Program-made: the position numbers and the translations under genes
Source of the DNA: Candidatus Falkowbacteria bacterium
GTDB lineage: Bacteria > Patescibacteriota > Patescibacteriia > CAIXNZ01
Assembly: GCA_963774955.1 (NCBI GenBank)
Contig: CAVZGV010000003.1
Span: 771-64,770 of the forward strand
Reading direction: 5' to 3'
Length of the DNA: 64,000 nt
Shown: positions 1 to 33,353 of the stretch, piece after piece
Position numbering within the stretch: the stretch's first letter is position 1
Layout of the letters: each line of letters opens with the position of its first letter
Notes under the pieces: model-generated
The model's input: only the letters and a program-made list of their open reading frames with translations
Told to the model about the DNA's origin: nothing
Databases searched by the model: none

Positions 1-1194
1 TCTGGTTGGGGCGATGCATTTTTAGAGCCCGCTTTAAAAATTTATTTAAAGCGCTGTCGCTAATTTTCAAATTACGTTGTTTGTTGATTTCCAGAGTAAA
101 TCCAGAATTTTATGAACATGTTGGCCGGATTTGGCAGAAATGAAGATAATCGGTGCCCAGGTCAAAAAGGCAAAATAACGGTATATATAGTTTGTATATT
201 CATTGATGGTTGTAACTTCTTTATCTTCAATTAAATCCCATTTATTGGCGATAATGATAATACTCAGTTTTGGACTGCATTAAAAGATCGCTGAGTTTAT
301 TGTCCTGCACGGTGAGTGGCTGGCTGATATCCAGAGACTAAAAGGCAGATGTTGGCACTCTGGGCATTATCAATGCTTTTTCGAACGGAAATTTTTTCTA
401 AGCCCTTGCCGATATTGGCTTGGCGGCGGATGCCGGCTGTATCAATTAGAGTAAAATTTTGTCCTTTATATACTAAGTCAGTATCTATAAACTCACGTGT
501 AGTAAAAGGGATGGGTGAAACAATGACTCGGTCTTCACCTATAATCGCATTTAATAATGATGATTTTCCTACATTAGGTTTGCCGATAATAGCAATTTTG
601 ATGGATTTTAGTTTTTCTAGTTTATTGGAGACTTTACTTTTTTTAATAATTTTTAATTTGTTCACTATTTCGTGTCCAATAAATCACCGGTGGCCATGCC
701 AGTTAAGGCTGAAACAAAAAAGGTGCGCCAAGTCCCAATTGATAAAAACTCAGCTGCCCCAGTACTGAAATTTAAGTGAGTCGGTTTTATTGGCGATTAA
801 AATGATATGTTTATTTGGGAAAAGTTTCTTTAAGGTTCTGGCTAATTCACGATCCTGGGGCAGGGGACCTGTCTGGATATCAACAGTAAATAAAATTAAA
901 TCGGCGTTTTTTAGGGCCGTTTGGGTCGTTGTTTGATAATTTCATTGGCAAAATCAATATTGGCTAAAGGGGCCAATTGTTTTAATTTTTTCTTGGGTAA
1001 AATAGTTTCAATACCGCCGGTATCGATTAATTCAAAATTAATACCCTGCCAGTAAACCTGGCCGATATTAAGGTCGCGTGTGGTGCCGGCAAGTTTGGAG
1101 GTTAAGGCCTTTGGTTGTTCGATTAAGCGGTTAAATAGTGTTGATTTGCCGATATTGGCACGGCCGAAAATAATAACGTTAGGTAGGCTTTCAT
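1..1194 (-). pseudogene. der: GTPase Der/EngA with two G domains. The N-terminus is at ~1194 and the gene runs off the window start. The frame is broken at least 4 times.
   Basis: Minus-strand translation gives LPNVIIFGRANIGKSTLFNRL...TTRD...LIDTGG (GD1) and IAIIGKPNVGKSSLLNAIIGEDRVIVSPIPFTTR...LIDTAGIRR...ANKWDL (GD2), with frame changes between pieces. ORF 297..665 is one fragment. Confidence 0.7.
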
Positions 1195-1213
1195 AAATTT
1201 TAAGTTGCGATTA

Positions 1214-2630
1214 TCAATAAAAAAACCGAATAAATATAGTGTCGTTGTTTTTTAATTTTAAAGAGAGTGACTGGAGATTTTGTCCGAGGATGATAATAAA
1301 ATCAGCCTCAATATTTTGAATGTTTAGCCATTCAGGTTTGTCTGTGGCTAGAGTAGCATTTAATTTTGTTTTAAGATCATCGAGATCTTCGCCTCTTTGG
1401 CCATTAGTTAAATCATAAATCAAAGTTGACTCAATATCTTTTTGTGCCGCATTGCCGATTTTAGTTATTTTATAGCCATGGCCTTTAAATCTACAGGTGC
1501 GATAGGCCAGCCCTTCTATTTTGGTACCGTTTTGTATTTCTATTTTTACAATTTGCTTGGCTTTTTCAGGATTGCCGGTTCAAAAACATTTTTCACCATT
1601 TTTTGTAATTGTTTAAACGACATGTCCTTGGGTAAAAGCAAGTAAGCGCCATTAATCATGGTCGCATAAAGAGGGCTGTCATTGGATGGCTCTAAAACCA
1701 AGTTGGTTATATTATTAGAATCAAAGTCTTTAGCTAATTTGTAAAATTTATAGATTTCCCAAGGTTCCAGATTGGTGGACACGTTTTCCTTATACATATT
1801 TAAGAACGCCGAAATTTTACTGTAGCTGATAAAAGTCGTAAAGGATAAGGCCTTGTCTTTGATGGCTGTCAGAATTTTTTGTTGTCTTTTACTCCTGGCA
1901 AAATCTGAACTTTCACCATTATTGCCATGTCGAGACCGGGCAAAGTTTAGGGCGGTTTCGCCATCCATTTTTTGTAAACCTTGTTCAAATGATACGGTTT
2001 GATAGCCATAGTTATCAGTGGGAAACTGAGAATCAGTAAAGGCAGTATCAACATAGACTTTAATACCATCCAATTCATTGATTAATTTTTCAAAGCCGGA
2101 AAAGTCAACTCGTATATAATAATTTATAGGCTGATCAAAAATCTGGCTGATACTCTCAGCTGACTGGGCACCGGCTCCTTTTTCTTTCATTTCCCCATAA
2201 TGATTGGCTTCATTGATTTTACGCCAGCCATAGCCGGGAATGGGAACAGATAAGTCGCGAGGGATAGAAACCATTGAAACTTTCTTGGTTGATGGTTGGA
2301 CGGAAACAAGAATGTTTGTATCGGTTAAATAGGGACCAGGATGTCCTTCTCCGCCCATGCCTGTGAGTAGGATATTTATGCGATCTTCTTTTTCTCCTGC
2401 CAGCAACTTGTCTTTGCTTATCGTGAAATTTAATGTTTGGAAGATATTGATTTTCTGATGTTCGCTGAAATGCTTTCACCGGACAGCAAGATTTCAAAGG
2501 AGAAAATAAATACGAAAATTGCCAAGAAAATCAGCGGGTAAAAAAGACACTTGGAGAACTCCCCGTTTCTTTGGCTGTTTTGGAGGTTTCGAATGAAATT
2601 GGTTAGGAAATTGATTTTAGGGGTTGACAT
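1214..2630 (-). pseudogene. LytR-CpsA-Psr (LCP) family cell-envelope phosphotransferase. It has an N-terminal TM anchor and is split over at least 3 frames.
   Basis: ORF 1546..2406 contains ILLTGMGGEGHPGPYLTDTNILVSV...MVSIPRDLSV...ALNFARSRH...SDFARSKRQQKIL, the LCP signature. ORF 2430..2630 supplies a TM helix upstream and ORF 1214..1423 a C-terminal continuation. Confidence 0.6.
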
Positions 2631-2794
2631 CTAAGGTCCTAACTAAAAAATTAGGAGAAATGATTTCTCTACTATTAATTTAAACAGAAAAATAGAAAAA
2701 GACAAGGAGTGGCGAGATTTGCTGCTATCTTTATGGTTTGTGCTATCATTAGATTAAACTTATTTTAATTTTTAGTCATTCAATCTATTATGCC

Positions 2795-3416
2795 CAGCAT
2801 CAAAAATGAGGATAGCCAATTTGAATGGAAGACCAAGTCAACATACGATTCCCTGGTAAAACCATAGGGGAATTTTTTATTGAGATTGTTAAGGTCGTCA
2901 TTATTTCTTTGGCCATTATTATTCCGGTGCGTTATTTTTTAATTCAGCCTTTTATGTTAAAGGTGCTTCCATGGAACCCAGTTTTCATGATCATGAATAT
3001 TTGATAATCAATGAAATCGGTTATCGTTTGGATCAGCCACAGCGCGGTGATATTATTGTTTTTCGTTATCCCAAAGATCCGAGTCAATATTTTATCAAAA
3101 GAATTATTGGCTTGCCTGGCGAAAAAGTTAAGATTAAAGATAATAAGGTTTATGTTTATAATGATAAATTCCCAATAGCGTTGAATTAAATGAAGAGGTT
3201 GTATATTGTGAAGATGTGGAGACAACTAATGTGGGTAAATCAGAATTTATTCTAGGCGCGGATGAATATTTTGTTATGGGGGATAATCGTGAGGCTAGTT
3301 TGGATTCTAGAGGATTTGGTCCAGTGCCAAAGCGGTTGATTATTGGCAAGGCCTGGGTTCGTGGCTGGCCATTTGATAAGATTGGTGTTTTTAAACCTCC
3401 ACAATATAATTTTTAA
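2795..3416 (+). pseudogene. lepB: Signal peptidase I, fragmented by frameshifts.
   Basis: GASMEPSFHDHEYL...RGDIIVFRYPKDPSQYFIKRIIGLPGEKV (S26 boxes B-D) in ORF 2971..3189; [17 protein letters not shown]...GKAWVRGWP (box E) in ORF 3216..3416. A one-T deletion in a T-run upstream breaks the TM / Ser-box region. Confidence 0.6.
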
Positions 3417-3572
3417 TTTTAGGGGGCCTTGCTTCGGATTGATTAAATAATTTTACGAACTAAACAAAAAGCCAAGATAAAAGTTTGATTTAATCCCGTA
3501 TGCCAAAAGTTAAGAAAGATCAAAAAAATGAAAAAAGTTAAAGGTGAAATTGTTAAGCAGATGAAAGCTGAA

Positions 3573-4878
3573 ATGAAGTTGATAGAATTTCAAAGTTTCA
3601 AAACAGACGCCGCAGGTTTTGCGTGGATTTAAAGATATTTTGCCAGGGGAGCAAAAATATTGGGATTTGTTGCGGGAAAAATTAGCTATTATTGTGCGTG
3701 ATTATGGATTTGAGCGAATCGATTTGCCGCTTGTTGGAAGAAACAGCGCTTTTTGTCCCGTTCTGTTGGTAAAGAAACAGATATTGTTGACAAAGAAATG
3801 TTTAATTTTATTGATAAAGGCGGTGAAAATGTTAGTTTAAGACCAGAAGCAACTGCTCAGTTGGTCGTGCCTACATTAATCACGGTATGTTTAATTTACC
3901 CCAGCCAGTTAAACTTTATTATGTAGGCCCAATGTTTCGTTATGATCGGCCGCAATCAGGTCGTTATCGACAGTTTAATCAGTGTCGGTTGTGAGGTTTT
4001 GGGCGATATGCATCCGGTTTTGGATGCGCAGATGATTATCATGGCCTATAATTTTTTCAAAGAATTGGTATTCATGTCACGGTATTCAGATTAATAGTAT
4101 TGGTTGCGTATCAATTGCCGCAAGGATTATAAAGTTCAATTGGTGAATTATTATAAAACTCAAAGAGCTGATTTATGCGATGATTGTAAAGACCGCTCGG
4201 TCAAAAATCCCTTGCGACTTTTAGATTGTAAGGAAGAAAAGTGTATTGCCATTAGTGAAGATGCGCCGCAAATTGTGGACTTGGTTATGCGATGAGTGCA
4301 AGAATCATTTTGTCAAAGTGCTTGAATTTCTAGATGAATTGGAAATTCCTTATAATCTAAATTCTTATTTGGTTCGCGGTTTGGATTATTATACTAAAAC
4401 CGTTTTTGAGGTTTGGTCTGAAAATGAGGAAAAGAAGGGTCAAAATGCCCTGGGTGGTGGTGGCCGCTATGATGGTTTGGTGGAAATGCTGGGCGGGCGG
4501 GCAACTCCGGCTGTGGGTTTTGCTCTAGGCTTAGAACGAATCATTTTAAAAATAAAGGAGTTGAATCTGCCTGTACCCGAGAAAGAAAAACGCGATCTTT
4601 TTGTAGGACAGTTGGGCGAAGCTTCAAAAAGAAAAACGTTAAAGCTTTATGAAACCTTAAGGGCCGAGGGGCTTAAAGTGGCGGAATGCTTTGCCAAGGA
4701 TGGTTTGAAAAGTCAGTTAGAAATTGCCAATAAATTGGGAGTAAAATATACCTTGATTTTAGGTCAGAAAGAAATGTCTGAAGGGACTATCATTTTGAGG
4801 GACATGGAAGCAGGTGTCCAGGAAACAATAAATTATAATAAAGTCGTTAAAGAAGTTAAAAAACGGTTGGAAATATAG
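3573..4878 (+). pseudogene. hisS: Histidyl-tRNA synthetase. The 5' two thirds are broken by several single-base indels; the C-terminal 210 aa (anticodon-binding domain) are intact.
   Basis: RGFKDILPGEQKYWDLL...[10 protein letters not shown]; then, after frame changes, [83 protein letters not shown], and the intact LVRGLDYYTKTVFEV...GGGRYDGL tail. Confidence 0.7.
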
Positions 4879-4985
4879 AGGATAGTACAATTCGAAAAAA
4901 AGTGCTAAGGATATTGCAGGTTGAAAAAGATCAAGCTGATGGCGCGTTAGCCCGTAAAATAGTGGAAGAAGAATCAAACAAATAA
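4879..4985 (+). repeat. Degenerate remnant of the yqeY 3' end, a scar of the segmental duplication.
   Basis: 4937-4985 (gatggcgcgttagcccgtaaaatagtggaagaagaatcaaacaaataa) matches 8373-8421, the end of the yqeY-like gene, with a few substitutions. Confidence 0.6.
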
Positions 4986-5003
4986 AAAATTCAGATAATT
5001 CCC

Positions 5004-7514
5004 ATGCACAAGCACTTTCTCTTGGCGCCAGTAAAAAGCCGGGAGCAAAAAAATCATAAATTTGACAATAAGACTGCCAAAGCATTATTGATAGTTGTTT
5101 TGTTTACGGCAGTTTTTTTGTTTGTGTCTCCGGCTTTAGCCCAAACTCAGGATATTACAGGTCTAAGCTATGCTCAATACACCGGGCTGGGTACTCAGGA
5201 TATCCGGATTACAATTGCTAATTTAATCAGGATATTTTTTGGACTTTTAGGATTGGTCGCCGTTGTGATTATACTTTACGGCGGTTTTTTATACATGACT
5301 TCGCAGGGAAACCCTGAGGTAATTCAAAAGGCGAAAAAAGTACTTATCGGCGCTTTTATCGGCCTGCTTATCTGTTTATTGGCTTTTGCTATTGTTCAAT
5401 TTATAATAACCGCTATTTTAGGCGGTGGCGGAGGCGGAGAAGGTGGAGTCGGCGGTGGCTGGGGCGGTGGCGGCGGCGCTTTAGGTTCAGGCATTATAGA
5501 AAGCCATTATCCGGCACGCGATGCAGTCAATATTCCGCGCAATACAAAAATTGCCGTTACTTTTAAAGAGGCAATGTGTCTGACTAGTATAGTCAATGCC
5601 GAGACTGGTAATAAGATTAACACAGATAATATAAGAATATATCCGACGCCGGAAGGCAACGCTGAGCCTGTTTATGTTCAGGACGTTGACGCTTCATATA
5701 CTGCGGACTTAAAGACTTTTGTTTTCAGGCCTGTTAATTATCTGGGCAGTTCAGGTGCGCCTATGCGTTATACTGTGGAATTGACTGAAGATATTACTAA
5801 ATTTGGCTGTAGTAATCCGGCCTTTGGAGTCTTCAGGAATTATGCCTGGAACTTTACTGTTTCTACGGAAATAGACAATACGCCACCGCAGATTAAGTCG
5901 GTCATTCCGTATCCGGCTGAAGAAGTTGATCGTAATAATATTGTGCAGATTAATTTTACCGAACCGATAGACCCGATGACTTTACGAGGGGTAGTGCAAC
6001 TGGACGGCGGTAATAATGTGACGGTGGGCAGTTTGCAGACCGGTACATATAATTACATAAATGTTTGTGCCGCGGCAGATTGTTCTGCGAGCAATAAATT
6101 TATTGCCGGTGAATTCAGATATTCAAATCAGTATCAGACTGTAGAATTTATCACTAATGATCTTTGCGGTAAAAACAGCTGTGGCGGTGATGTTTATTGT
6201 CTGCCGGGTTTGGCTGATATATCTGTCTTGGTTAAAGCCGCTAGTTTAATCCAGGCTGAAGAAAATACTGCGCAATTTCCGTATAACGGTCTGGTTGATA
6301 TGGCTGATAATTCTTTGGATGGAAACTTGGACACTAAATCCGCAGGACCAGGCACTACGCCATACAGCCTTAATGATAATTTGGTTGGCGGAGAATATGT
6401 GACTGCTGCCGGTGAAGGTGATAATGCTATTTGGGAGTTTAGTACGACCGATAAAATTGATTTGATACCACCGCAGATAAGTGTGACTACACCTTTGGCC
6501 AATACCAAGGATGTGGATCCTGACGATACTTATATGATTGATTTTGATAAAGTCATGATGTCCAGCACCTTAAAGCCTAACGGTCAGTATGATGATGGCA
6601 AAAACTATATTACCTTGATTCAGTCAGAAGTACCGGCCGGTTTCGAAGCAGGCTATTGGCTAGAAAAAGAGGAATTTACTGTGGCCAGCAGGCTGAGAAC
6701 CAGGGCCTTAATGAAAACATCTGGTTTGGGTGAAAATCTCAATTATGGCATGAAAATAAGTTCTGACGTTTTGGATATTAAACAAAATTGTTATTTGCCA
6801 TGTTCTGGTCCTGGTTGTGTCAGGCAAGAGGTGCCTGGCGGCAAGCCGGGTCAATATGTTCAAGGCGTGCCCTGGACCCCGCCAACCGGCGCTTACCCAA
6901 CCTGTAATTTAACCGGAACAACTTATAGGTCAATCGGTAATTTTAATGTCAGCTATAGCGAGGACGGGGCAGATAAAGTGTTTTATTTTAAAGCTTTTAG
7001 TCTTATCGACAGTGCCAATACAATTAATGATTTTTATCTTTATGGTAAAGGTATTCCCAGTTCAACAAATGTAATGAAGCATGGAGCTACTTTTACTCAA
7101 ATGATAGCCACAAATAGGGCAGCAACGATGGTATATTATAGCCAATCGGAAAATAAATATTATTTAGTTAATTTTTATGGCGGTTTTGATTCCGGCGGAA
7201 CCGCAAATGCGACAATTACCGGTGGCATTAGCGTCGCCATTTCCGATGATGCGGGTGAAACCAAGGTAACTAATGCGGGGTTAAAAATTATTTCCTCCTC
7301 TCAGTCCTGGACTAGATGGATGGATGGATCGGCAATTTATATCGGCGATGGTTCGGCGGATTTCAGCGTAAAAATGAATCTGACGAGTTTTAAAAAAACT
7401 TTACCGTCTAATCAAAAATGTACCGATGCAGAATGTGAATGGTTTTTATTTGGGCCAGAAGGCCCTGTAAAATTAACAATTCCAAGTGAAGTCACGATTA
7501 ATTTTACAAAATAA
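5004..7514 (+). CDS. Secreted pilin-module adhesin paralog A1 (836 aa). It has a signal peptide, a VirB2/TrbC-like two-helix hydrophobic hairpin, a poly-Gly linker and a Cys-containing beta-rich ectodomain.
   Basis: Intact 836-aa ORF. N-terminus: KALLIVVLFTAVFLFVSPALA | QTQD...TQDIRITIANLIRIFFGLLGLVAVVIILYGGFLYMTSQGNPEVIQKAKKVLIGAFIGLLICLLAFAIVQFI, then GGGGGGEGGVGGGWGGGGG. The 5' ~1.55 kb is nearly identical to 8440-9990. Confidence 0.8.
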   Translation: MHKHFLLAPVKSREQKNHKFDNKTAKALLIVVLFTAVFLFVSPALAQTQDITGLSYAQYTGLGTQDIRITIANLIRIFFGLLGLVAVVIILYGGFLYMTSQGNPEVIQKAKKVLIGAFIGLLICLLAFAIVQFIITAILGGGGGGEGGVGGGWGGGGGALGSGIIESHYPARDAVNIPRNTKIAVTFKEAMCLTSIVNAETGNKINTDNIRIYPTPEGNAEPVYVQDVDASYTADLKTFVFRPVNYLGSSGAPMRYTVELTEDITKFGCSNPAFGVFRNYAWNFTVSTEIDNTPPQIKSVIPYPAEEVDRNNIVQINFTEPIDPMTLRGVVQLDGGNNVTVGSLQTGTYNYINVCAAADCSASNKFIAGEFRYSNQYQTVEFITNDLCGKNSCGGDVYCLPGLADISVLVKAASLIQAEENTAQFPYNGLVDMADNSLDGNLDTKSAGPGTTPYSLNDNLVGGEYVTAAGEGDNAIWEFSTTDKIDLIPPQISVTTPLANTKDVDPDDTYMIDFDKVMMSSTLKPNGQYDDGKNYITLIQSEVPAGFEAGYWLEKEEFTVASRLRTRALMKTSGLGENLNYGMKISSDVLDIKQNCYLPCSGPGCVRQEVPGGKPGQYVQGVPWTPPTGAYPTCNLTGTTYRSIGNFNVSYSEDGADKVFYFKAFSLIDSANTINDFYLYGKGIPSSTNVMKHGATFTQMIATNRAATMVYYSQSENKYYLVNFYGGFDSGGTANATITGGISVAISDDAGETKVTNAGLKIISSSQSWTRWMDGSAIYIGDGSADFSVKMNLTSFKKTLPSNQKCTDAECEWFLFGPEGPVKLTIPSEVTINFTK
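5082..5500 (+). other. Pilin-like module (two hydrophobic helices around a short GNPE..K.KK loop) plus Gly-rich linker of A1.
   Basis: Hydrophobicity pattern read from the translation. Paralogous copies at 8518-8935 and 11125-11500. Confidence 0.55.
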
Positions 7515-7529
7515 ACAGAACCCTATTTG

Positions 7530-7612
7530 AGGGACATGGAAGCAGTGTCCAGGAAGCAATAAATTATAATAAAGTCGTTAAGGAAATCAAGAAAAGACTG
7601 GAAATGTAATGA
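7530..7612 (+). repeat. Remnant copy of the hisS 3' end (out of frame).
   Basis: tttgagggacatggaagcag-tgtccaggaagcaataaattataataaagtcgttaa matches hisS 4796-4860 with ~85-90% identity and a 1-nt gap. Confidence 0.65.
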
Positions 7613-7633
7613 TAATAATTTATCAATGAGGAA

Positions 7634-7662
7634 AGTGCTAAGGCTAGCCAAGCACTTTTTTT
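7634..7662 (+). terminator. Rho-independent terminator after A1.
   Basis: agtgct-aaggctagcca-agcact stem-loop followed by a 7-T run. Confidence 0.6.
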
Positions 7663-7682
7663 ATTTATAAACAGTTTTTAAT

Positions 7683-7711
7683 TTGACTGATTAGCCAAAT
7701 ATTGGTATATT
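7683..7711 (+). promoter_or_regulatory. Sigma70-type promoter for rpsU-yqeY.
   Basis: TTGACT, 17 nt, TATATT, about 30 nt upstream of the rpsU start. Confidence 0.5.
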
Positions 7712-7738
7712 TAAAGTATCTTAATTATTGAAAGGAGA

Positions 7739-7969
7739 ATGGTTATAATGACCGAAGTTAAAAGAAAAAAGAGCGAAACCTTTGAAAGCTTATTAAGAAG
7801 GTTTAATAAAAGAATGATTCAGAGCGGCAAAATTTTGCAGGCTAAAAAAATCAGATTTAAAACTAAGGGACCCAACAAAAATTTGGCCAAGCAATTAGCC
7901 CTAAGAAGATTGAAAATCAAGACTAAAAAAGACTATTTGAGAAAAATCGGCAAGTTAATTGAGGAATAA
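7739..7969 (+). CDS. rpsU: 30S ribosomal protein S21.
   Basis: Small basic protein ...RFNKRMIQSGKILQAKKIRFKTKGPNKNLAKQLALRR..., typical of S21. An AGGAG RBS at 7733-7737 favours the second ATG at 7748 as the real start. Confidence 0.75.
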   Translation: MVIMTEVKRKKSETFESLLRRFNKRMIQSGKILQAKKIRFKTKGPNKNLAKQLALRRLKIKTKKDYLRKIGKLIEE

Positions 7970-7974
7970 TTATA

Positions 7975-8421
7975 ATGCAGATGTCAATTTTACAGCAAAT
8001 AGATACTGATTTTCAGCAAGCCCGAAAAGATCAGAATCAAGACGCCTTATCCACCTTGCGTCTGATTCTGGCTGCTTTGAAATACGAACGAATTAAAAAA
8101 ATGGTTGATTTAACTGAAGATGATGTCATTAAAATATTAAAAACAGAGACAAAGAAACGAAAAGAATCAATAGTTGAATATGAAAAAGGCAACCGTCAGG
8201 ATCTGGTTGCCAAAGAACAAACTGAAATTAAAATAATTGATAAGTATTTGCCAGCTCAGTTAAGTGAGGATGAAATCAAAGTTAAAGTCAGGGCCATACT
8301 TAGTTCCCTGGAAGACAAAGATAATGCCGGTAAGGTTATGGGTAAAGTAATGGCAGAAATGAAGGGACAGGCCGATGGCACATTAGTTCGTAAAATAGTG
8401 GAAGAAGAATCAAACAAATAA
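7975..8421 (+). CDS. yqeY: GatB/YqeY domain protein.
   Basis: 148 aa, ...ILAALKYERIKK...KRKESIVEYEKGNRQDLVAKEQTEIKIIDKYLP...AGKVMGKVM..., the YqeY family pattern. Confidence 0.6.
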   Translation: MQMSILQQIDTDFQQARKDQNQDALSTLRLILAALKYERIKKMVDLTEDDVIKILKTETKKRKESIVEYEKGNRQDLVAKEQTEIKIIDKYLPAQLSEDEIKVKVRAILSSLEDKDNAGKVMGKVMAEMKGQADGTLVRKIVEEESNK

Positions 8422-8439
8422 AAAATTCAGATAATTCCC

Positions 8440-11028
8440 ATGCTTAAAAATTTTCTCTTGGCGCCAGTAAAAAGCCGGGAGCAAAAAAATCATAAATTTG
8501 ACAATAAGACTGCCAAAGCATTATTGATAGTTGTTTTGTTTACGGCAGTTTTTTTGTTTGTGGCTCCGGCTTTAGCCCAAACTCAGGATATTACAGGTCT
8601 AAGCTATGCTCAATACACCGGGCTGGGTACTCAGGATATCCGGATTACAATTGCTAATTTAATCAGGATATTTTTTGGACTTTTAGGTTTGGTCGCCGTT
8701 GTGATTATACTTTACGGCGGTTTTTTATACATGACTTCGCAGGGAAATCCTGAGGTAATTCAAAAGGCGAAAAAAGTACTTATCGGCGCTTTTATCGGCC
8801 TGCTTATCTGTTTATTGGCTTTTGCTATTGTTCAATTTATAATAACCGCTATTTTAGGCGGAGGCGGCGGCGGAGAAGGTGGAGTCGGCGGTGGCTGGGG
8901 CGGTGGCGGCGGCGCTTTAGGTTCAGGCATTATAGAAAGCCATTATCCGGCACGCGATGCAGTCAATATTCCGCGCAATACAAAAATTGCCGTTACTTTT
9001 AAAGAGGCAATGTGTCTGACTAGTATAGTCAATGCCGAGACTGGTAATAAGATTAACACAGATAATATAAGAATATATCCGACGCCGGAAGGCAACAACG
9101 AGCCTGTTTATGTCCAGGATGTTAACGCTTCTTATACTGATGACTTAAAGACTTTTGTTTTCAGGCCTGTTAATTATCTGGGCAGTTCAGGTGCGCCTAT
9201 GCGTTATACTGTGGAATTGACTGAAGATATTACCAAATTTGGCTGTAGTAATCCGGCTTTTGGAGTCTTCAGGAATTATGCCTGGAACTTTACTGTTTCT
9301 ACGGAAATAGACAATACGCCACCGCAGATTAAGTCGGTCATTCCGTATCCGGCTGAAGAAGTTGATCGTAATAATATTGTGCAGATTAATTTTACCGAAC
9401 CGATAGACCCGATGACTTTACGAGGGGTAGTGCAACTGGACGGAGGTAATAATGTGACGGTGGGCAGTTTGCAGACCGGTACATATAATTACATAAATGT
9501 TTGTGCCGCGGCAGATTGTTCTGCGAGCAATAAATTTATTGCCGGTGAATTCAGATATTCAAATCAGTATCAGACTGTAGAATTTATCACTAATGATCTT
9601 TGCGGTAAAAACAGCTGTGGCGGTGATGTTTATTGTCTGCCGGGTTTGGCTGATATATCTGTTTTGGTCAAAGCCGCCAGTTTAATCCAGGCTGAAGAAA
9701 ATACTGCGCAATTTCCGTATAACGGTCTGGTTGATATGGCTGATAATTCTTTGGATGGTAATTTAGATAATAAATCTGCGGGGCCAAGCGCTACGCCTTA
9801 TAGCCTCAACGATAATTTGGTGGGCGGCGAATATGTAACTGCCGCCGGTGAGGGTGATAATGCTATCTGGGATTTTAGTACGACCGATAAAATTGATTTG
9901 ATACCGCCTCAGATCAGCGTGACTACTCCTTCGGCCAATACAAAAGATGTTGACCCTGACGATATTTATACAATTGATTTTGATAAGGTCATGATGTCCA
10001 GCACTTTGAAACCAAACGGGAATTATAACGGACAAACCACAGAGACTATTTATATAAATAATTTATTGGATGGATTGCAGGGTTACTATCGTTTTACGAC
10101 TAGTGCTATAGACGATTCTGGTGCTAGCCATGATGGTACCCTTATGGGTACGGCTTCCATTGTAAATGGAGAATTAAACGTTACAGGCAGTAGTAATAGC
10201 TCTGTTACTACCAGCTTTAAAATAGATCAAACATCCGGTAAGACTGCTACTTTTTGCGCTTGGGCAAATCCCAGAGGAGCGACGACTTGGCAGGGTAATG
10301 ATTTAATTTCTACAGATAATGCCGGTTATGATTGGGCAATTGATATTATACCGTCAGGATATTGGCGGGTGGCAACCGGTAAAAATTATTGGACTGCTAA
10401 TAATCAATTTCCAGCTAAATTGAACCAGTGGCAGTATGTTTGCGCTGTATTTACGACTGACAATGTTTATATATATGTAGATGGCATCGCCGCCAGTTAT
10501 GGTCAGGCGCCCGGGTATGATAGTAGTGTTAATTTTTTTACTATTGGCGCAAATCCTTCATTTCCCCCTGAAGTTTTTGACGGTAAAATTGACGCTGTTG
10601 TTGTTTATAACCGGGCTTTGGGTCCTGAAGAAATAACTGCTTTATATAATTTGGGTAAAGACGGAGATGTCTTGAGTTATCAGGGGCAACCAGTCACTCA
10701 GGTTCAGGAAGGTGAAAATTATATTACGTTAATTCAGTCGGCAGTCCCTGCCGGTCAGGAATCAGGCTATTGGATAGAAAAGGAGGAAATTACTGTGGCT
10801 AGCATACTGAGAACCAGAGCCTTAATGAAAACAACGGGTTTAGGTGAAAATCTCAGATATGGCCTGAAAATAAGTTCTAATGTTTTAGATATTAAACAAA
10901 ATTGTTATTTGCCGTGTTCCGGCCCTGGCTGTGTCAGGCGAGAAGTGCCTGGTGGTAAGCCGGGTCAATATGTGCAGGGGACACCTTGGCAGGGTACTTA
11001 CCCGACCTGCAATATCCCGCCGCAGTAA
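8440..11028 (+). CDS. Pilin-module adhesin paralog A2 (862 aa). Same N-terminal 510 aa as A1, but it carries an inserted LamG/ConA-like lectin domain and lacks the A1 C-terminal extension.
   Basis: Intact ORF. The first ~1.55 kb and 40 nt of upstream sequence are nearly identical to A1. A LamG_3-like block lies at ~10060-10665 (HDGTLMGTASIVNGEL...WQYVCAVFTTDNVYIYVDG...FDGKIDAVVVYNRALGPEEITALYN). Confidence 0.8.
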   Translation: MLKNFLLAPVKSREQKNHKFDNKTAKALLIVVLFTAVFLFVAPALAQTQDITGLSYAQYTGLGTQDIRITIANLIRIFFGLLGLVAVVIILYGGFLYMTSQGNPEVIQKAKKVLIGAFIGLLICLLAFAIVQFIITAILGGGGGGEGGVGGGWGGGGGALGSGIIESHYPARDAVNIPRNTKIAVTFKEAMCLTSIVNAETGNKINTDNIRIYPTPEGNNEPVYVQDVNASYTDDLKTFVFRPVNYLGSSGAPMRYTVELTEDITKFGCSNPAFGVFRNYAWNFTVSTEIDNTPPQIKSVIPYPAEEVDRNNIVQINFTEPIDPMTLRGVVQLDGGNNVTVGSLQTGTYNYINVCAAADCSASNKFIAGEFRYSNQYQTVEFITNDLCGKNSCGGDVYCLPGLADISVLVKAASLIQAEENTAQFPYNGLVDMADNSLDGNLDNKSAGPSATPYSLNDNLVGGEYVTAAGEGDNAIWDFSTTDKIDLIPPQISVTTPSANTKDVDPDDIYTIDFDKVMMSSTLKPNGNYNGQTTETIYINNLLDGLQGYYRFTTSAIDDSGASHDGTLMGTASIVNGELNVTGSSNSSVTTSFKIDQTSGKTATFCAWANPRGATTWQGNDLISTDNAGYDWAIDIIPSGYWRVATGKNYWTANNQFPAKLNQWQYVCAVFTTDNVYIYVDGIAASYGQAPGYDSSVNFFTIGANPSFPPEVFDGKIDAVVVYNRALGPEEITALYNLGKDGDVLSYQGQPVTQVQEGENYITLIQSAVPAGQESGYWIEKEEITVASILRTRALMKTTGLGENLRYGLKISSNVLDIKQNCYLPCSGPGCVRREVPGGKPGQYVQGTPWQGTYPTCNIPPQ
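10060..10665 (+). other. LamG / concanavalin-A-like lectin domain cassette, present in A2 and absent from A1.
   Basis: Motif pattern typical of the LamG_3 family, ending in the ...iDeV.iYNrALs.eEI..lY box. Confidence 0.6.
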
Positions 11029-11052
11029 ATTTTAATAAATTGATTTTAATTT

Positions 11053-14000
11053 ATGAGGAGGTTCAATATAAAAAATTTGTTTCTTTTAGGCCTGATTTGT
11101 TTGGGTTTATTTGTGGTTGTTAATTTCGTTAGTGCTCAGGGTTCGACCATTGATCCTGGACTTAATTATGTCGGCCCTAATATTGGCATGGGTACTCAGG
11201 ATATTAGAATTACTATTGCCAATATCATCAGAATACTTTTAGGTATTTTGGGGCTGGTTGCGGTGATAATCATTATTTACGGCGGAGTTTTGTATATGAC
11301 AGCGGCCGGTGAGGTAGAAAAAATAAAAAAGTCCAAGCAATTGATAATCGGCGCGGTTATTGGCTTAATTATTGTTTTATCAGCTTTTACCATCGCCAGT
11401 TTTATAATCAGCAGTATTCAGAACGCAACCGGACCCGGAGGAGGGCCAGGAGAAGGGCCAGGGCCAGGACCAGGACCGGGACCAGGGCCAGGACCGTTAA
11501 CTGGTTTTTGTCAGGATCCGGATTTGACTTCAGATGCCCCTTATATTTGCAGCTTATCGCCGAAACAGGCGAAAAAAGGTGATTACGTTACTATATTGGG
11601 CGGTAAATTTTTAGATTATGATAATGCCAATAGTAAAGTAGTTTTTGTAAAAGAAGGTGATACAACAGAAACAGAATATCCGGCCACTATTGTTTTATGC
11701 GCCAGTAATCCATCCTGGAAAGACTATGAAATTATAATTGAAGTGCCTAATGATTTGCCCGCAGGACCCGGCTTTAATATTTATGTAAAAAATGCCAAGG
11801 GGACCAGTAAAGATAAGCTTGTCGGCGCTTTAGATCCAAGCCATAAATTTACTTTGCTTGACGGTCAGCCTGGCCCGGGTATTGCTTGTTTAGAGCCTGA
11901 TGCCGCCAATAAGAATTTATCAATAAAAGTTTACGGTAAGCGCTTTGGAGCAGAGCAGGGTACCAGTAAATTCACCTTTACTGAAAATGCCTTAGCCGAA
12001 ACAATCGTCGGCTGGAGTGATACTGAATTAACCAGCGTTAGTGTGCCGGCAACTGCAATTAGCGGCAATGTTTTTGTCACCGTCTCAGATCAAAATAGTA
12101 ATGGTGTGTTTTTTAGATACACCTGTAATGTCAGTGATGATTGCGTCTCCACCTGTTGTACTGAAACGTATTTCGGAAAAAGCTGCGCAGCTGCTAATTA
12201 TTGTCTGCCTGGTCCTGGGGAAAGCTGTAACGGAGATACTACAGGCGGAACTTGTCAGCCGACCGAATGTCGGCCAGACTCTGTCTGTGATACAACGACT
12301 TGTGATTGTCGCTATCCACAGTCAGGTGATCCTTGCGATGCAGACCTCAACACAGCAGCCTGTCAGCCTGACGCCGCTAAATGCGGTTCAGGTTTATACT
12401 GTGCGCAAGCGAGCTGTACTTGTGCGGAAATGCCGCAAATAACCAAAGTTGAACCCAATGACGGCGCTCCTGGTAATTTTGTGACTATTTGGGGCAAGGG
12501 TTTTGAAAATAATATGGTCAAACCTGAGGATATAGTTTTTAAATCTGATTTTGATTCCGAGGCCGGCAAAGTAGGCTGGAGCTTTGATACCGGAGTATCC
12601 GGGGAGGGTGAAATCCGTACGGATGGTAAGTCTTATTCAGGTTCATCTAATATTTATCTGCGCATGCCCCAGACTGCCGAGGCTAATGATCTCTTATCAG
12701 CTTATTTGGAAGTAGCTGAAGCTTTGAATCCGGATTTGCGGCTCAATGAGGAAGATGTTCTTGTTTTTCAGTTTAAGTACAAAGGAACAGTGTCTCAAGG
12801 TTCAAGTTTTAGCCTTGGTTATATAGATAATAACAATCAAATTCATACTTGGGCTTATATGTCAGTAGGGACTTTTGAAGATTGGGATACTTATAATTAC
12901 GTAATTTATTCTATCCCTATTAATGCGGAAAAAATATTTATAACATTAAGGAGTACAGGAACTCAAGCAGAAGATAGTGAAATGTATATTGATGATGTTC
13001 AGGCATTTAGATTGCCTGAATACGGCGAAGTTAGGTTTTGCGGCCAGGGTGGCTGTGGCAATTCTGATGATAGAATTGCCCGTATGCCTATATTTGTGGC
13101 ACCTTTTTGTTCAGCTGACGGAATTTGGACTGACAATCAGATAATTGTTGAGGTCCCCCTCGGCGCTGGCTCCGGTCCACTTCAGGTGACAACAGTTAGC
13201 GGACTCCAGGATGCAACCAATGATGAAAATGGTGAGCAACTTTCAGATTTTGAGATTAATACTATTAAGAGGCCGGCTATGTGCAGACTATTTCCTGCTC
13301 AAGGTGTCTATGAACAAAGAGTTGTAATCGGAGGTATAAATTTCGGGACAGCTCTAGGTGAAGTTTTAATCGGCGGTACAAGTTTTAATACTATGTTGAG
13401 ATCTACAGTCCCGCCTTCGCGTTGGCCTAATTATATTTGGTATGACCAGATTATTGCTCAGTTAGCGGTACCGTTATTAAGCGCAGGTACTTACCCTGTG
13501 CAAGTGAAAGTTGGTGATGAATTCAGTAATCCCATGAATTTTAAAGTTTTACCGAACGTAGGCGCCCCGCATATTGACGCGATTGACCCGGTTCAAGGTC
13601 AACCAGGTCAGTATATTACTATCTTGGGCAGTAATTTCGGTAATCAACCCGGTTCAGTTAAATTTAATAATAATGAGCCATTGAAGGATAACTGGACATC
13701 TGGTGATATTTCTTTTCCGGCTCAGTGTCAAAGCAATTATTGGCATGATACATATATCGTGGTAAAGGTTCCGTCCGGACTGTCTACCGGCTTGATTGAT
13801 GTCGTGGTTAAGGCCGGTGAAGTATTTTCCAATACCACAAAATTCACGATTTGTGCTGCCGGTTCAGGCACTTGTCCATTGACCCCGGGAATTTGTGCTA
13901 TAAATCCCAAACAGGGGCCGGTGGGTTTAAGCGGAGTTACTGTTTATGGTGAAAACTTTGGTGATTATTTAAATACTAAAAGTCAAATCGTTTTTAATGA

Positions 14001-17000
14001 AGTTCCTGTCAGCGATGTTATTGGCTACTGGACTAATACCATGATTGGTCTGGGTTCGAATTTAACAGCAGCAGCTAATCCGCCGATCGTTGTGCCGGAG
14101 ACTACCAGCGGTCCGGTGCAGGTAACTGATAAAAACGGTATCCTTAGTAATACTATTAAATTTGAAGTTTCTGACTGCCGTATTGATGCGACAGTTTGTG
14201 CTGAAGGAACTAAATGTTGCGGTACTGGATCTTGTCTGGCTGAATGTCCGGTGGCAACTGTTGCCTCTTGTTCATATAATTGGAGCTTTACCACGGGAAC
14301 CAGGACACCTTATTTCGGACCTCCTTATGTGGTTGAAGATTCCGGTTGTACCAATAATACCCAAAGTCCGTCGCCCTGGATTTCTTCGGAAAATAATTGT
14401 GTTGATGCTTTGATTTCCGCCAGATTCAGACAGCCTGCGCAAAACGGAGATGTAGATGCCAATATTTTAACCTCCACCTTAATCCCCGATAATATTAAGG
14501 TTGTACCCTGCGGTAGCGCCGATGTTTTTGATGATGCAAATTGTGAGACAGCGGGCATCGCTGGTCGCGATATTAATCCGATTGAAGTGGAAAACCCCCA
14601 TGTCTTAGTGACTGGCGGTCCTACGGTAACCAATAAATTTACTTTTTATCCCAAGTCTTCCTTACTGCCAAATACTTGGTACAAGGTGGTTTTAAAAAGT
14701 AATCCCAGCACTAACCTTGGTATTAAAACAAATAATGATGTCTATCTGGACGGTGATAAAGACAGCCTGGACGGGGGAGATTACAGCTGGTATTTCAAAA
14801 TCAGAAATTCGGCGGATGAATGTCCGATTGATAAAGTTTTGGTTTCCCCTCCAACTGCCAAGCTTACTTTAATTACTCAAACGCAGGAATATAGCTCGTA
14901 TCCTATTGCCATGAATTGCAATATTTTAAATCCGGCTAATTATACCTGGAATTGGTGGAAGAAATATAGTGATGGCCATGAAGAAAATGCCGCTGACACT
15001 GATGGCGGTTATGGCGTGGCCACGCTGGCGCCAAAAACTCCGCCGCCTCAATTTATTGGCAGCTATAGCTATAAACAGCTGGCCACACCCAAAAAACAAG
15101 GCTTGGTCTATGTGGCGGTTAATATTTTTCCGAGTGAGCCTGCTAAATATAAAGAAGATACCAATAATACGCTGGTGGTTGATTTTAATATTCCCAGTAT
15201 AATTGATTTTTATCCCAAAGACGGTATTAATCAGGCGGAAGTTAATTCTTATGTAACAATTGAAGGTATAAATTTTGGTCAAAGTCAGGGCGACAGTCAG
15301 GTTTTATTCGGCGAAGCGCAAGCTCAGCTGGCAGACTGTGTTGATTCTTGGACAGATAAAAAGATTAAAGTAATTGTGCCCAAGGCCGGGCCCATTCAAA
15401 GTTCAGGCTTAAAAACACTGGCGACGCCCGAGCCAGTCAGCTTTAATAATAATCTTATTTTAGGCTATAATTTTGATGAAAATGATGATGTCTTGGTCGC
15501 TGATATTACCGGCAATTATCAGGGTGAGATTGTTAACGGATCCAAAGTAGATTCACAATTTAATAAAGCTTTACAGTTTAACGGCACTGATACTTATGTT
15601 CGAATCGGAGGCAATATCCAAGCAGCTTCTGGCAGTATTGAATTTTGGTTTAAACCCGAAGCCAGCGGAGTTCTATTTTCAGCTATGGGGCAGGCAGGCA
15701 ATGATTTTACTATCAGTTATAATGCTGCTGCCACGTTGGGAGTTATTAAAAATAATCAATGGAATCATGTAGTCTATACCTGGGATCAGGCCAAAATCGA
15801 AGACAATTTGTATATAAACGGGATAAGGCTAAGCGGAATTAATAATCCGGGCCTTGATATTGCCGGCGCTTTTATCGGGGTGAATAAAATCAGTTATATG
15901 TTGGGAACCCAAGAATCCGGCGGGTTAAGAATCAATTATTTTAAAGGGCAACTTGATGATTTTGCCATTTATAATAAGGTTTTAAGTCAGCAGGAAGTTT
16001 GGACAAATTTCGGGCTGACACCGGGACAAATTGTTTTGTTAAATTTTGAAGGAACTGGGTCGGAAATTTTAGATTCATCACTTAATAATTTTGTCGGTAT
16101 GGCTGTTGACAACCAGAATGTAAGTTTCCGGACAGCTGAAGGCAAATATGGTCAGGCCATTACTTTTGATAATAATAATCGAATAAATATTATAAATAAT
16201 CCCTCTTTGTCTTTTGATAATCAGTTTACTATTGAGGGCTGGTTTAAAATTCCCACCTTAAATTCTAACACTATTTTCGAGGCGAATAATATTAAACTGG
16301 GGGTTAACTCCGGGAATCTTAGGCTGGAATTGAAGCTTGATGTCGGCAATCGCTATCTGAATTTAGGCTTAGTTACGACGGGGGCAGACAAAAATTTTGA
16401 TATTAATGCCTGGAATTATTTTGCCGGGGTCTATGACGGAGAAAAAATCAAACTTTATTTGAATAGTTCAGAAAAAGAATATGCTACGGTTGGCAAGATA
16501 TTTCAGGAAGCAGACTTTAATAAAGCATATATCGGGGGTATCGGTAGTTCTTTTCAAGGCTCCTTGGATAATTTAGCCCTATATAATCGGGCATTATCCT
16601 CGGCGGAAATTAATAGCCGTTTGGGCGCTAAAGATAAATCTTTTATTAAAGTGGTTACCAGTTTTGGCCAGGCTATAAGCGATTTTAATAATAATGGCAT
16701 CAAAGATCCGGGTGAAATTTATACTTATAGTAATAATATTTATCCTTTCTTGTGTGCCTTGCAGCCAAATTTCGGGACTGAAGGGACAACTATCAACGTC
16801 AGTGGTGATAATCTTGGTAATAATAATAAAACTATTTATCAGAACAAACAATACGGTATTGGCAGCTATATTAAGTTCAATTATCCGAGTTTGCCTGTTT
16901 TGGACAACAACAAAATAAAGACCTGGACTAATAAGGCTCTGAGTTATGTAAATCCATTTACCAACGTGGACAGTCCAGTTATCAAGGTTTTTGCCACCAT

Positions 17001-20000
17001 TGATCCTTATTCCGAACCTTATAATGATCAAGAAAATGACGGACAGTTTATCGATGGGATGGATACTGACTACGCCGATATTAAGCCAGAACCAAACGGC
17101 AATGGTGTTTATGATAAATATAATTATTCTGTTTACGGCGGAAACGGTGACCAGCCTGAATTAGCCAGTAATACCGTGGATTTTTTTCAGCCGCCAGTAA
17201 TTGTCAGCCTGTCTCCTGATAATGGTCCGGTTAATCAATGGGTTACAATTTACGGTTATAATTTCGGTATTTTTGACCCGGAGATAAGTAAAGTACAATT
17301 TTATAATAATATTACCGGGCGCGTCATCGGCTGTCCTGATCCTGTTTGGTTTGATGATCATATTATTGTGGAAGTTCCGGTAGAGGCTCAATCAGGAGCA
17401 GTCAAAGTAATTACTGCCCAGGGTTTGGTCAGTAATGAAAAACCCTTTAAGGTAAACAATAATCCGTTGGGCGCAGGATTATGCGCTTTTCAAGATTTAT
17501 TGGGTGAACCGAAATTTAACGGCCGACCGACTGACCCGATTAAAGCAATTGGGGTGCGCTTTGATGCTGTCCAGGGCCAAAATAATTTGATTTTCAATGA
17601 TAAGCAAAATGCTCCGATTGCTGACCCGGCGGATTGGGCGGATTCGGAAATTATTTCTACTGTGCCGGTCAGTGCTGAAAGCGGCTTGGTTTATGTTAAT
17701 AAAAAAGTGGAATCAGGCAGAAAGTGCGTGGGCTTTAGTATTGCCAGCTGGTGTCCGAGTAATAAGTACGATGTTTTATATACTGATGTGCCTAGTAATT
17801 CTCTGCCTCTGGAGATTCTCAATCTCTGCGAAAGCGGTTATTACGGGACCTTGGAAGCCCGAGAAAAAGCGTTCCCAATAGAAACTTTTACCCGCGCAGA
17901 TGATAATGCCCCCAAAATAGAATTTTCCGATCTTAATATGGGCGTTTTAGCTTCTGACGGCACTTATTTGTATGCGATGTATCAGAGTGTTAATCTTTGG
18001 GGATATTCATTCTTTGGTAATCCTAATGAGGATAATGTCATGACAATCTGGAAAATCGGGTCAGGTTATAATGGCACGGAATTGGGCCGAGTTTATAAAA
18101 AATATCAGGCCACCCGAAAGCTTCTTTATCCTGATGCCGGAACATATGTTGCGGAACTTTCAGCGCCAACGGGGACCAGTTCATTAATTTATACCCCGAC
18201 CGGACTTTATGTCGGTTATGAAAATCATTTTAAGACTAGGAGCTGGCTGCCGACGACTCATCCTGATTATAAAAAGAACTGGTGGGGTATTGCCAAAATA
18301 AAATTTAATGAAGCCAGCAGTACATATGACTGGGAGATGCAAGAAATTCCTCAGGGTTTGGTTCTGGATTATTATCCTACCTGGCCAATTGTGACTAATG
18401 CAAGTTCTTCCTCTGCTAGTAATCGTTTGATGTTATATTATACCGGTAGCAATATTTTAGTTATTAGTAGAGATAATAATTTACCGGGTTTTGTCATTCA
18501 GGTTTTAAACAATGATTGGCTACAACTAGGTTTAACGTCTGTTAAAAATGCCGAGGCTAATTTTTATTCTTATAATGCTATTGTAAATACGTATTGGAAT
18601 TACACTGCAACTTATCCACAAGGTGTTGCTGATGAGCAGTATTTTTATAATATTTATAGTAACAGGGTAAATATTATTGACTGGCGTACAGGAGAGTGGG
18701 TAGGCAGGTTTGGTAATTACGCCGCGTGGACAGTTGAACAGAATGGCGTTTATGACTGGAAAAATCAAAAATACTGGTTTGGCACCAATAGAAATGATAC
18801 CCCAATTACTTGGACCTCCAATCCAGCTTATTATTCGCAAATAGTGCCGTTTACCTATGATGCTAACGGCAATCTGTCTAGCAACCATAATCGTATTTAT
18901 CGCTATGAAAAATGTCAGACTCCGATAGTCGGTTTTTGCCGTTCTGATCTTGATTGCCAGCAAGGCGGCATGTGTACGAACAGTAGATGTGAAAACGGGC
19001 AATGTACTCCGGAAATTAAGTCTTTTTCGCCGCTAGAAGGAGCAGTCGGTACTTGGATGACAATCAGCGGCTGTCATTTCGGTTGTCAGCCGGGGCAAGT
19101 ATATTTCAGCGGCGGAACATCACTTGACCAAGTATCAACTGATGGTTTATTGGCGGGCTACACCTTTGATTCAACGGAAAATAACGGATTATTCAGGAGT
19201 TCTTTTACCAACCCAGACATCAGCAGTCAACTGGTTGGTAGCGCTACCATCAGCAATGGGGTCTTGAATGTTACCGGTGATGGCTACTTGGATTTAGATA
19301 ACAGACTGGCTCAGGCTCAATATTTTGGCGGTACTGAGACCGGGAAAATGACCTTGCTGATGAAAGTAAAAACCGCTAGTTTCTCGGCCGGTAATATAAT
19401 TAATTTATCCAGGTATATCAAAGGTACGAATTATTTTGCCCTGCAGCCAAGTACCGGAGATCAGACTCAGCTTCGTATTTATGTTAAGACCAAAACTGTC
19501 GATCGGTCGATCTATTCTGCGGGGAAGATCTTGCGTAATGAATGGAATAATATCGCTTTTGTTATGGAAGCAGGAATCGGCTATAAAATTTATATTAACG
19601 GAAAGCTGACGGATGATGTTCCAGCGGCTGACCTTATATTATACAGCTGGAATGGTGATACTGCACTTGGTATAGGGTATTCTAAATTTATTGGCCAGAT
19701 TGATGATTTCTTTGTTTATAACCAGGCTTTATCCGCTGAGGAAATATTAAAATTTTCCTTAGGTGCCAAAGGACTGGAGCTGGCTGATCCGGTTTGCTGG
19801 CCAAATTGGAATTGTTCTTCTACCGGAGGTTATGATGAAGTGACCGTGGAAGTGCCTAATCGTCGGACACCTACCAATTTAGCTGATGATGCGCTAACCG
19901 GGCCAGTTCAAGTGGTCACTGCGGCTGGGTTAGTGGATAGCAGCAATGATTTGCCGCTTGCTCCGACTCCGACGCCGCCGACGCCGCCGACAGCGCCAAG

Positions 20001-29891: not shown

Positions 29892-29929
29892 CTTCAAACT
29901 TAAGTTTATTATGTTTATAATAACAAAAT

Positions 29930-33248: not shown

Positions 33249-33353
33249 TCCCAGGTTTAAATTTATTTTAGGCCTTGATTATTGCCAGTTAATAATTTTT
33301 TCACCTAAAAACAGACTCCAATTTATTGAATTTGTTTATTTAGTTTTTTATTT

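Follow-up and report, generated by a model that had tools for sequence, protein, structure and literature searches.

VirB2-like pilin modules joined to giant ectodomains form a conserved two-gene cassette in Patescibacteria

Why would a membrane module resembling the small pilin of a type IV secretion system (T4SS) stand at the N-terminus of surface proteins that run from hundreds to thousands of residues, and what might it do there? The question is raised by a stretch of 64,000 nucleotides from Candidatus Falkowbacteria bacterium (GCA_963774955.1, contig CAVZGV010000003.1, positions 771 to 64,770; hereafter the window). Three open reading frames (ORFs) on its forward strand, A1 (5004-7514), A2 (8440-11028) and B (first ORF 11053-20286), had been predicted to open with one VirB2/TrbC-like pilin module fused to giant ectodomains that would act as adhesins. 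Patescibacteria, which live attached to other microbes, account for a large share of the bacterial diversity that is still uncultivated. Here, we show that the A-B cassette has been conserved in many Patescibacteria together with its genomic neighborhood, and that the interpretation of its products as pilin-adhesin fusions is supported as far as sequence analysis reaches.

Translations and alignments confirm that the three ORFs share their N-terminal module, whose parts follow the same order in A1, A2 and B: a signal peptide, the GLGTQDIRITIAN segment, a helix, a short basic loop, a second helix and a linker. Cleavage sites of the AxA type for signal peptidase I fall between PALA and QTQ in A1 and A2, and between FVSA and QGS in B. 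The loops are Lys-rich and carry a net positive charge (QGNPEVIQKAKK in A, AGEVEKIKKSK in B), and the linker that directly follows helix 2 is poly-Gly in A and (GP)n in B. All motifs quoted in the original prediction, namely Ala-x-Ala, GTQDIRITIAN, GNPEVIQKAKK, AGEVEKIKKSK, poly-Gly and (GP)n, are present. In A1, the signal peptide occupies residues 1-46 (5004-5141), the pilin module residues 64-140 (5193-5423) and the poly-Gly linker residues 141-160; in B, the signal peptide covers residues 1-28 and the pilin module residues 48-124 (11194-11424), with the (GP)n linker next. The modules of A and B are 60% identical over 97 residues.

We examined the membership of this module in known pilin families with profile comparisons. 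All three modules pass the cutoff (26.6 bits) of the Pfam model PF18895 (T4SS_pilin), scoring 40.0 (A1), 38.5 (A2) and 33.4 bits (B) with E-values of 4e-10 to 5e-8; the similarity of the A and B modules is therefore far above chance. The NCBIfam model NF045849 (Mbov_0395 family pilin-like conjugal transfer protein; cutoff 40) is passed by A1 (45.8) and A2 (45.6), with B at 38.4, and the three stay below the cutoff (27.9 bits) of the TrbC/VirB2 model PF04956, at 22.2, 20.3 and 17.3 bits for A1, A2 and B, respectively. We also aligned the module profile with hhalign to a VirB2/TrbC profile built from seven annotated genes that lie between VirB1 and VirB3 in MPF_T plasmids (the Agrobacterium VirB2 sequence, checked against annotated plasmid genes, was 99.2% identical). 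This gave a probability of 85.5% and an E-value of 5.7e-6 over 63 in-register columns spanning both helices; the same comparison against one single VirB2 sequence reached a probability of only 29%. We conclude from these sequence comparisons that the module belongs to the T4SS_pilin family and is probably homologous to established VirB2/TrbC pilins.

The AlphaFold2 model agrees with the predicted topology, placing a signal-peptide helix at residues 22-46 and a two-helix hairpin (67-99 and 104-139) with a predicted local distance difference test (pLDDT) score of 88-96 over the hairpin. Hydrophobic segments of A1 are limited to residues 23-48, 67-100 and 109-144. Motif and hydropathy scans found no other hydrophobic segment, no C-terminal transmembrane segment and no LPXTG motif in A1, A2 or B, and the hairpin is the sole membrane-associating element that follows the signal peptide in both A and B. 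In none of the three do the first 60 residues contain a class III type IV prepilin motif (cleavage between G and FTLxE). At 836, 862 and ~4,475 aa, the proteins lie far outside the range of a stand-alone mature pilin (~70-130 aa).

The predicted three genes exist as ORFs, yet they represent two protein types. A1 (836 aa) and A2 (862 aa) are 98% identical across the aligned N-terminal 169 residues, and at the DNA level a stretch of 1,652 ungapped bases (4932-6583 versus 8368-10019), starting 72 nt upstream of the ATG, is 95.8% identical. On this alignment, A1 and A2 are a recent duplication specific to the window, hence the types A and B rather than three, with A2 the orthologue of the conserved A gene and A1 its window-specific paralogue, a modular VirB2-like pilin. 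Codon differences between them are synonymous in 45 cases and non-synonymous in 13, which places both copies under purifying selection. B starts 25 nt past the A2 stop. Its first ORF encodes 3,077 aa, and a frame change at ~20254-20260 joins it to the ORF 20177-24487, so that B continues at 20261-24487 on the forward strand and reaches ~4,475 aa in total. The alignment to the orthologues P0260 (4,067 aa, 52% identical) and P0277 (3,771 aa) is collinear across the two frames. We observed that these orthologues are uninterrupted at the position of the frameshift, which may be an indel error or a real disruption. The joined length agrees with the 4.4 kaa first given as the upper size; the span first assigned to the finding, which ends at 11500, takes in the module of B and leaves out most of the gene.

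Beyond the linker, the two types carry different ectodomains. That of A consists of two Ig-like Big_5 domains, further beta-sandwich domains and a conserved C-terminus, QNCYxPCxGPGC; in A1, the tandem Big_5 domains (Pfam score 60 bits) are followed by a private C-terminal domain of ~200 aa. In the AlphaFold2 model of A2, pLDDT exceeds 90 at residues 160-530 and 760-850 and drops below 50 in the linker (142-155). In a Foldseek search, the A ectodomain matched Ig-like domains from L,D-transpeptidases, titin, CopC and the S-layer protein SbsC, and no catalytic fold was found in it. A2 additionally contains a Laminin_G_3 insertion (residues 586-732, ~10195-10635) that is present in only ~7% of the family. 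The ectodomain of B is an array of TIG and concanavalin A (ConA)-like lectin domains of ~4,300 aa with Cys-rich spacers, comprising TIG/IPT domains at about 288-356, 839-933, 1381-1446 and 2048-2132, a sialidase-N-like domain (1544-1652), and Laminin_G_3 domains at 1708-1854 and 2761-2898; a further Laminin_G_3 and a Big_5-like domain lie past the frameshift, and the whole of B has at least four Laminin_G_3. The description of the ectodomains as lectin-rich consequently fits B and, with its single Laminin_G_3, A2, but not A1, where only Big_5 was found. Likewise, Cys-rich describes only the distal part of B, whose second ORF has 4.7% Cys, and not A1 and A2 (1.6-1.7%) or the first B ORF (2.0%).

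A protein search with A2 returned 550 homologues, and nearly all of the best 120 carry PF18895 together with Big_5 (PF13205) in 480-940 aa. Their sources are Parcu-, Uhr-, Falkow-, Buchanan- and other Patescibacteria, and the most informative annotations among them read "Ig-like domain-containing protein" or "TrbC/VirB2 family protein". A HMMER search of 1.84 billion representative sequences with a profile of the A and B modules gave 49,582 matches at E <= 1e-3. Among the best 150 of these, a single N-terminal pilin module precedes 400 or more residues in 50 (total lengths 595-4,080 aa), 2-13 pilin modules occur in tandem in another 79, and stand-alone pilins account for 14. The cassette is therefore widespread and already present, unnamed, in public databases. 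The proteins with 2-13 tandem hairpins in one polypeptide, which may be called poly-pilins, include P0241 (820 aa), P0247 (1,775 aa) and P0253; the repeats of P0241 are real and in frame. In some database entries, the pilin module sits at the C-terminus of proteins of 250-450 aa, and the loci of this poly-pilin and C-terminal-module group include L044 (9019-9864) and L063 (7456-9594).

Scanning species-representative genomes, with loci classified from stop-to-stop ORFs, a hidden Markov model of the module and BLAST of the neighbours, we recovered 78 loci in two contexts, a pair (~30) and an array (~40) of 3-10 tandem small pilins; the scan was seeded with a two-sequence module alignment, so the sample is biased to close relatives of the A and B modules. 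Pair loci follow the order signal peptidase S26, HisRS, (YqeY), A (594-791 aa) and B (1,600 to >3,400 aa), and two membrane proteins with TSP3 repeats follow wherever downstream sequence is visible. Further downstream come YbeY and DAGK in L002 and L010, and then FtsA and FtsZ in L002. The window shows the same pattern, with A doubled and two extra giant genes inserted. In L001, a third gene lies between A and B (12100-13248), encoding 382 aa, of which 256 extend beyond an N-terminal pilin module. Many cassette-bearing records of metagenome-assembled genomes (MAGs) are titled "uncultured Gammaproteobacteria bacterium" (L007, L014-L016, L020 and others); their gene content and synteny match Patescibacteria, and the titles are probably a labelling error. 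Maturation of VirB2/TrbC uses S26-type peptidases, which makes it worth recording that a gene for an S26 signal peptidase I lies ~2-5 kb upstream of A in ~28 pair loci (L001-L075); it is probably the housekeeping LepB.

If the hairpin were a passive membrane anchor, little constraint would be expected on it. Across 85 A orthologues, the frequency of the top residue is 0.70 in the pilin module, ~0.60 in the ectodomain and 0.49 in the signal peptide. Compared across genomes, modules are 45-48% identical whether the comparison is A-A, B-B or A-B, and small array pilins are ~30% identical among themselves. Identity between the A and B modules is 54.5% within a genome (n = 31) and 45.0% between genomes. 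In addition, the more closely related arrays L008 and L011-L017 each contain one stand-alone pilin that is 46-62% identical to the B module of the window, versus 24-45% for its array neighbours; the best such match is L008 3147-3584, in MAG JAPLYC01. A neighbor-joining tree of the modules (94 columns) was too unresolved to part A, B and small-pilin clades. Because it is constrained, co-varies with the partner module and is mirrored by one stand-alone pilin, the hairpin resembles a module for protein-protein assembly more than a passive anchor.

Does the organism have a secretion system with which such a module could interact? Near the end of the window, 60266-63872 on the forward strand encodes a membrane protein, previously called VirB6-like, that combines a signal peptide and a Cys-rich ectodomain with a multi-pass hydrophobic block and a long, charged tail. 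The listed ORF begins at a TTG (60342) inside the core of the signal peptide; a 1-nt shift in an A7 run (60293-60299) joins it to an ATG at 60266 and gives a full signal peptide, MGLKFRNKIKKKHLRISAFVFVFFGSLFLVNNALA, cleaved before APC. Either the run contains a homopolymer sequencing error, or it is a slippage site of the kind used in phase variation. Pfam gave no match for the protein, including its hydrophobic block (60990-62100) at E <= 1, and a metagenome scan returned no relatives. A distant homologue, P0412, scores 25.7 bits against PF04610 (TrbL/VirB6), just under the cutoff of 25.9. By protein search, homologues with 71%, 59% and 37% identity were found in three relatives that are syntenic with 48.8-63.9 kb of the window and share the order KsgA, TSP3 protein, giant CBM_4_9 protein (2,647-2,949 aa in L082 and L083) and VirB6-like gene. 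In all three, the homologue is followed within 1.5-3.5 kb by a ~480-aa protein, PrgI (VirB3-like), a TraC-like protein and the VirB4 ATPase, and in Saccharibacteria (L050) a homologue lies between a small-pilin array and VirB4. The VirB6-like label is reasonable in this light, and the protein is probably an extended VirB6-like T4SS membrane protein. It shares with extended VirB6 proteins a polytopic block with large hydrophilic extensions, and the copies in relatives stand directly upstream of VirB3-like and VirB4 genes, although the window protein differs in having no Pfam TrbL/VirB6 match. No VirB4 or VirD4 gene was found within the 64-kb window. Since PrgI, the TraC-like gene and VirB4 follow the homologue in the syntenic relatives, the T4SS core is almost certain to start directly beyond the end of the window, as predicted from gene order. 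In one of the three relatives (GCA_964590345.1), the A-B cassette lies on the same contig, ~25-50 kb from the T4SS locus, and the close-relative MAG JAPLYC01 holds all three loci, namely A-B (L004, L006), a small-pilin array (L008) and the T4SS (L084).

How, then, might A and B work? We propose that they are modular VirB2-class pilins that display adhesins and are assembled together with the T4SS pilin polymer, a reading to which we would give even chances. Both proteins would be inserted by the Sec pathway and cleaved by signal peptidase I. The hairpin would then span the cytoplasmic membrane, its two ends exposed outside and its basic loop facing the cytoplasm, because the loop is Lys-rich and the positive-inside rule applies, leaving the ectodomain extracellular. 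The chromosomal T4SS would handle A and B through the same hairpin contacts that it makes with the stand-alone pilin of the same subtype; A and B would become minor, tip or base subunits whose adhesins decorate the pilin polymer or a short stub, and this structure would attach to the host cell. A more specific version, that in a large branch of Patescibacteria the T4SS filament or a membrane-proximal pilin assembly is a heteropolymer of one conserved stand-alone pilin and the "megapilins" A and B, we put forward only tentatively.

Several observations weigh against this proposal. VirB2/TraA pili have five subunits per helical layer, and a C-terminal domain of 700-4,400 aa on every subunit would be sterically implausible; judging from published pilus structures, placement that is sparse, at the tip or at the base is the most that would be feasible. 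The A-B genes stand among housekeeping genes outside the T4SS locus, with the VirB6-like gene ~36 kb downstream of the end of B, and the small-pilin arrays of this lineage (7-8 pilins; L008 1-8517, L012 7506-15212) lie between SBP_bac_1 and DUF2079 rather than beside VirB4. The ectodomain of A is well conserved, not variable, and binding to a host receptor explains this no better than a fixed structural partner would. When the hairpin model was compared with PDB structures by Foldseek, nothing matched at E <= 0.001, the top entries being generic hairpins, ATP-synthase subunit c and CHMP4B; a two-helix hairpin is too simple to discriminate, and a fold search therefore cannot identify a pilin. 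A PDB sequence search with the module profile likewise found no solved pilin and returned only designed "Pizza" propeller repeats, rejected as spurious. Finally, no VirB2-like pilus has been observed in any Patescibacterium, for which only a "potential" for conjugative pili is reported (PMC12857230).

Some of these points fit a rival explanation, in which the hairpin has been co-opted as a static double-pass membrane anchor, possibly self-oligomerizing, that holds the giant Ig-like and lectin proteins on the surface of a monoderm cell and is never extracted or polymerized by the T4SS. The original prediction had allowed for a pilus as well as a membrane anchor. Its place as the sole anchor of A and B, the housekeeping setting away from the T4SS locus, the difficulty of packing giant domains into a VirB2 helix and the envelope or structural role hinted at by the conserved A ectodomain all speak for such an anchor, and proteins with 2-13 tandem hairpins resemble polytopic membrane assemblies more than extractable fiber subunits. 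What speaks for assembly is the pattern of constraint. Simple anchors are usually poorly conserved, yet the hairpin is the best-conserved segment and retains the family-invariant residues G94, G102, G120, L121 and K111; it tracks one stand-alone pilin and the partner module of the same genome; and the conserved N-terminus of the mature protein, GLGTQDIR, lies outside the membrane where anchoring would not need it. We regard the static anchor as a serious possibility, somewhat short of probable.

It is improbable, in our judgment, that the module serves as an export or targeting pro-domain from which the ectodomain is cut at the linker and then released or handed to another anchor. RP4 TrbC and Ti VirB2 are processed at the C-terminus by S26-type peptidases, and such a cut would resemble this trimming; a flexible low-complexity linker does lie right after helix 2 in both A and B, with pLDDT below 50 at residues 142-155, and the S26 gene is conserved upstream. 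However, no cleavage motif was identified, the linkers of A and B differ in length and composition, the S26 gene looks like a housekeeping LepB in a housekeeping block, and A and B have neither an LPXTG motif nor a C-terminal transmembrane segment that could act as a second anchor. As to whether gene-calling or assembly errors have simply fused a small pilin gene with the adhesin gene behind it, indel errors do occur in the window: B and the 60.3-kb gene have frameshifts, and essential genes are split at 1-4300. In this last region, EngA/Der, LytR-CpsA-Psr, the S26 signal peptidase and HisRS are each broken over 2-3 frames relative to intact L001 orthologues (tblastn), and only the C-terminal 210 aa of HisRS form an ORF (4246-4878); because several of the affected genes are essential, this region looks like indel-rich, low-quality sequence rather than a set of pseudogenes. 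Nevertheless, the module continues into 440 to more than 3,330 residues in unbroken ORFs of ~30 independent assemblies from different studies, and hundreds of database proteins carry the same fusion, which effectively refutes an artefact and leaves it a negligible probability.

The module is not new in itself. VirB2/TrbC pilins and their Patescibacteria relatives share with A and B a long signal peptide, a GTxDxxxxIxNI segment and a two-helix hairpin with a short basic loop, and the Patescibacteria pilins come from the same phylum, with relatives carrying the same monoderm T4SS type (PrgI/VirB3, VirB4, VirB6-like). Arrays of small VirB2-like pilins have been described in Patescibacteria (PMC12102498, PMC10633639), and in Southlakia, the sole genetically tractable Patescibacterium, the T4SS and VirB2-like pilins are essential (PMC10633639). 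Whether the T4SS of monoderm Patescibacteria makes a pilus is treated in reviews as an open question (PMC12857230). In contrast to known T4SS pilins, which are stand-alone proteins of ~100-160 aa, A and B add 690-4,350 C-terminal residues of Ig-like, TIG and lectin domains, and their two genes make up a fixed cassette among housekeeping genes, whereas the known small pilins occur in a hypervariable array or a T4SS operon. Neither PMC12102498 nor PMC10633639 mentions pilin fusions (the word "fused" in PMC12102498 refers only to VirB3-VirB4). In full-text searches of the literature, no report came up of large ectodomains fused to VirB2-class pilins, in line with the first impression that the arrangement is unfamiliar from the literature.

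The closest parallel in design comes from another filament class. In Streptococcus sanguinis, the type IV modular pilins PilB and PilC, which carry a vWA and a lectin module, respectively (PMC8179133, PMC9934059), follow the same logic, in that a pilin module is covalently joined to a bulky adhesin, including ConA-like lectins, and they are minor subunits that co-assemble with a major pilin in a monoderm; A and B may be likened to them as functional analogues only. Type IV pilins are nonetheless unrelated, having a single N-terminal helix and a class III prepilin signal in place of the hairpin and signal-peptidase I site of A and B, whose ectodomains are also 5-30 times larger. By this analogy, A and B would be the VirB2-class counterpart of type IV modular pilins. 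Gram-positive conjugation adhesins such as PrgB of pCF10, and VirB5 tip adhesins, have the same presumed role of attaching the T4SS-bearing cell to its target, but an LPXTG signal anchors PrgB to the cell wall, VirB5 forms a subunit of its own of the soluble type, and neither has a VirB2 module. A motif scan detected no C-terminal LPXTG sorting signal in A, B or the neighboring giant proteins.

The remaining surface proteins of the window, all on the forward strand, surround the cassette and the VirB6-like gene. Between B and the TSP3 genes, 24498-32407 encodes two further Cys-rich secreted or anchored giants (1,797 and 825 aa) with CBM_4_9, Lcl_C and DUF4215 domains, and a homologue occupies the same position in L035 and L007. 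These are followed by two single-pass TSP3 membrane proteins (32448-33248 and 33354-34445) with Asn/Asp-rich repeats matching Pfam TSP3_bac, homologues of which come directly after B in L002, L010, L018 and L020. Another TSP3-repeat membrane protein (49713-50495) and a CBM_4_9 surface protein of 3,233 aa (50525-60226) are conserved upstream members of the T4SS locus. The pilin module is absent from the other giants of the window (24498, 29930 and 50525), which have ordinary N-terminal signal or anchor sequences. In the TSP3 proteins (32448-34445 and 49713-50495), low-complexity runs rich in Asn, Asp and Leu (NLNDNLNINDNLN...) lie between the transmembrane helix and the calcium-binding repeats. 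The pair formed at the T4SS locus by a TSP3 protein and a CBM_4_9 giant of 2,650-3,230 aa (L082 267-9943, L083 1176-9985) mirrors the giant and TSP3 genes after A-B, and the giant surface proteins may have the TSP3 membrane proteins as partners. Scans of the window for tRNAs and Rfam families gave nothing relevant.

Pilins and pilin arrays of the VirB2 class are known; what appears to be new here is a conserved, widespread and apparently undescribed cassette of modular VirB2-type pilins. Such fusions represent a new design principle for this class, whose members are otherwise seen as minimal subunits of ~70 residues, and the A-B pair is a concrete candidate for the host attachment of Patescibacteria. 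A phylum-wide genomic survey detected "no adhesins such as PrgB" (PMC12102498). If A and B do enter a heteropolymer with the stand-alone pilin, they would be the first modular pilins of the VirB2 class, and the adhesin reported missing from the essential T4SS of Patescibacteria would have been identified. If the hairpin is only an anchor, the cassette would still reveal an undescribed and widespread tether for giant surface proteins in monoderm bacteria.

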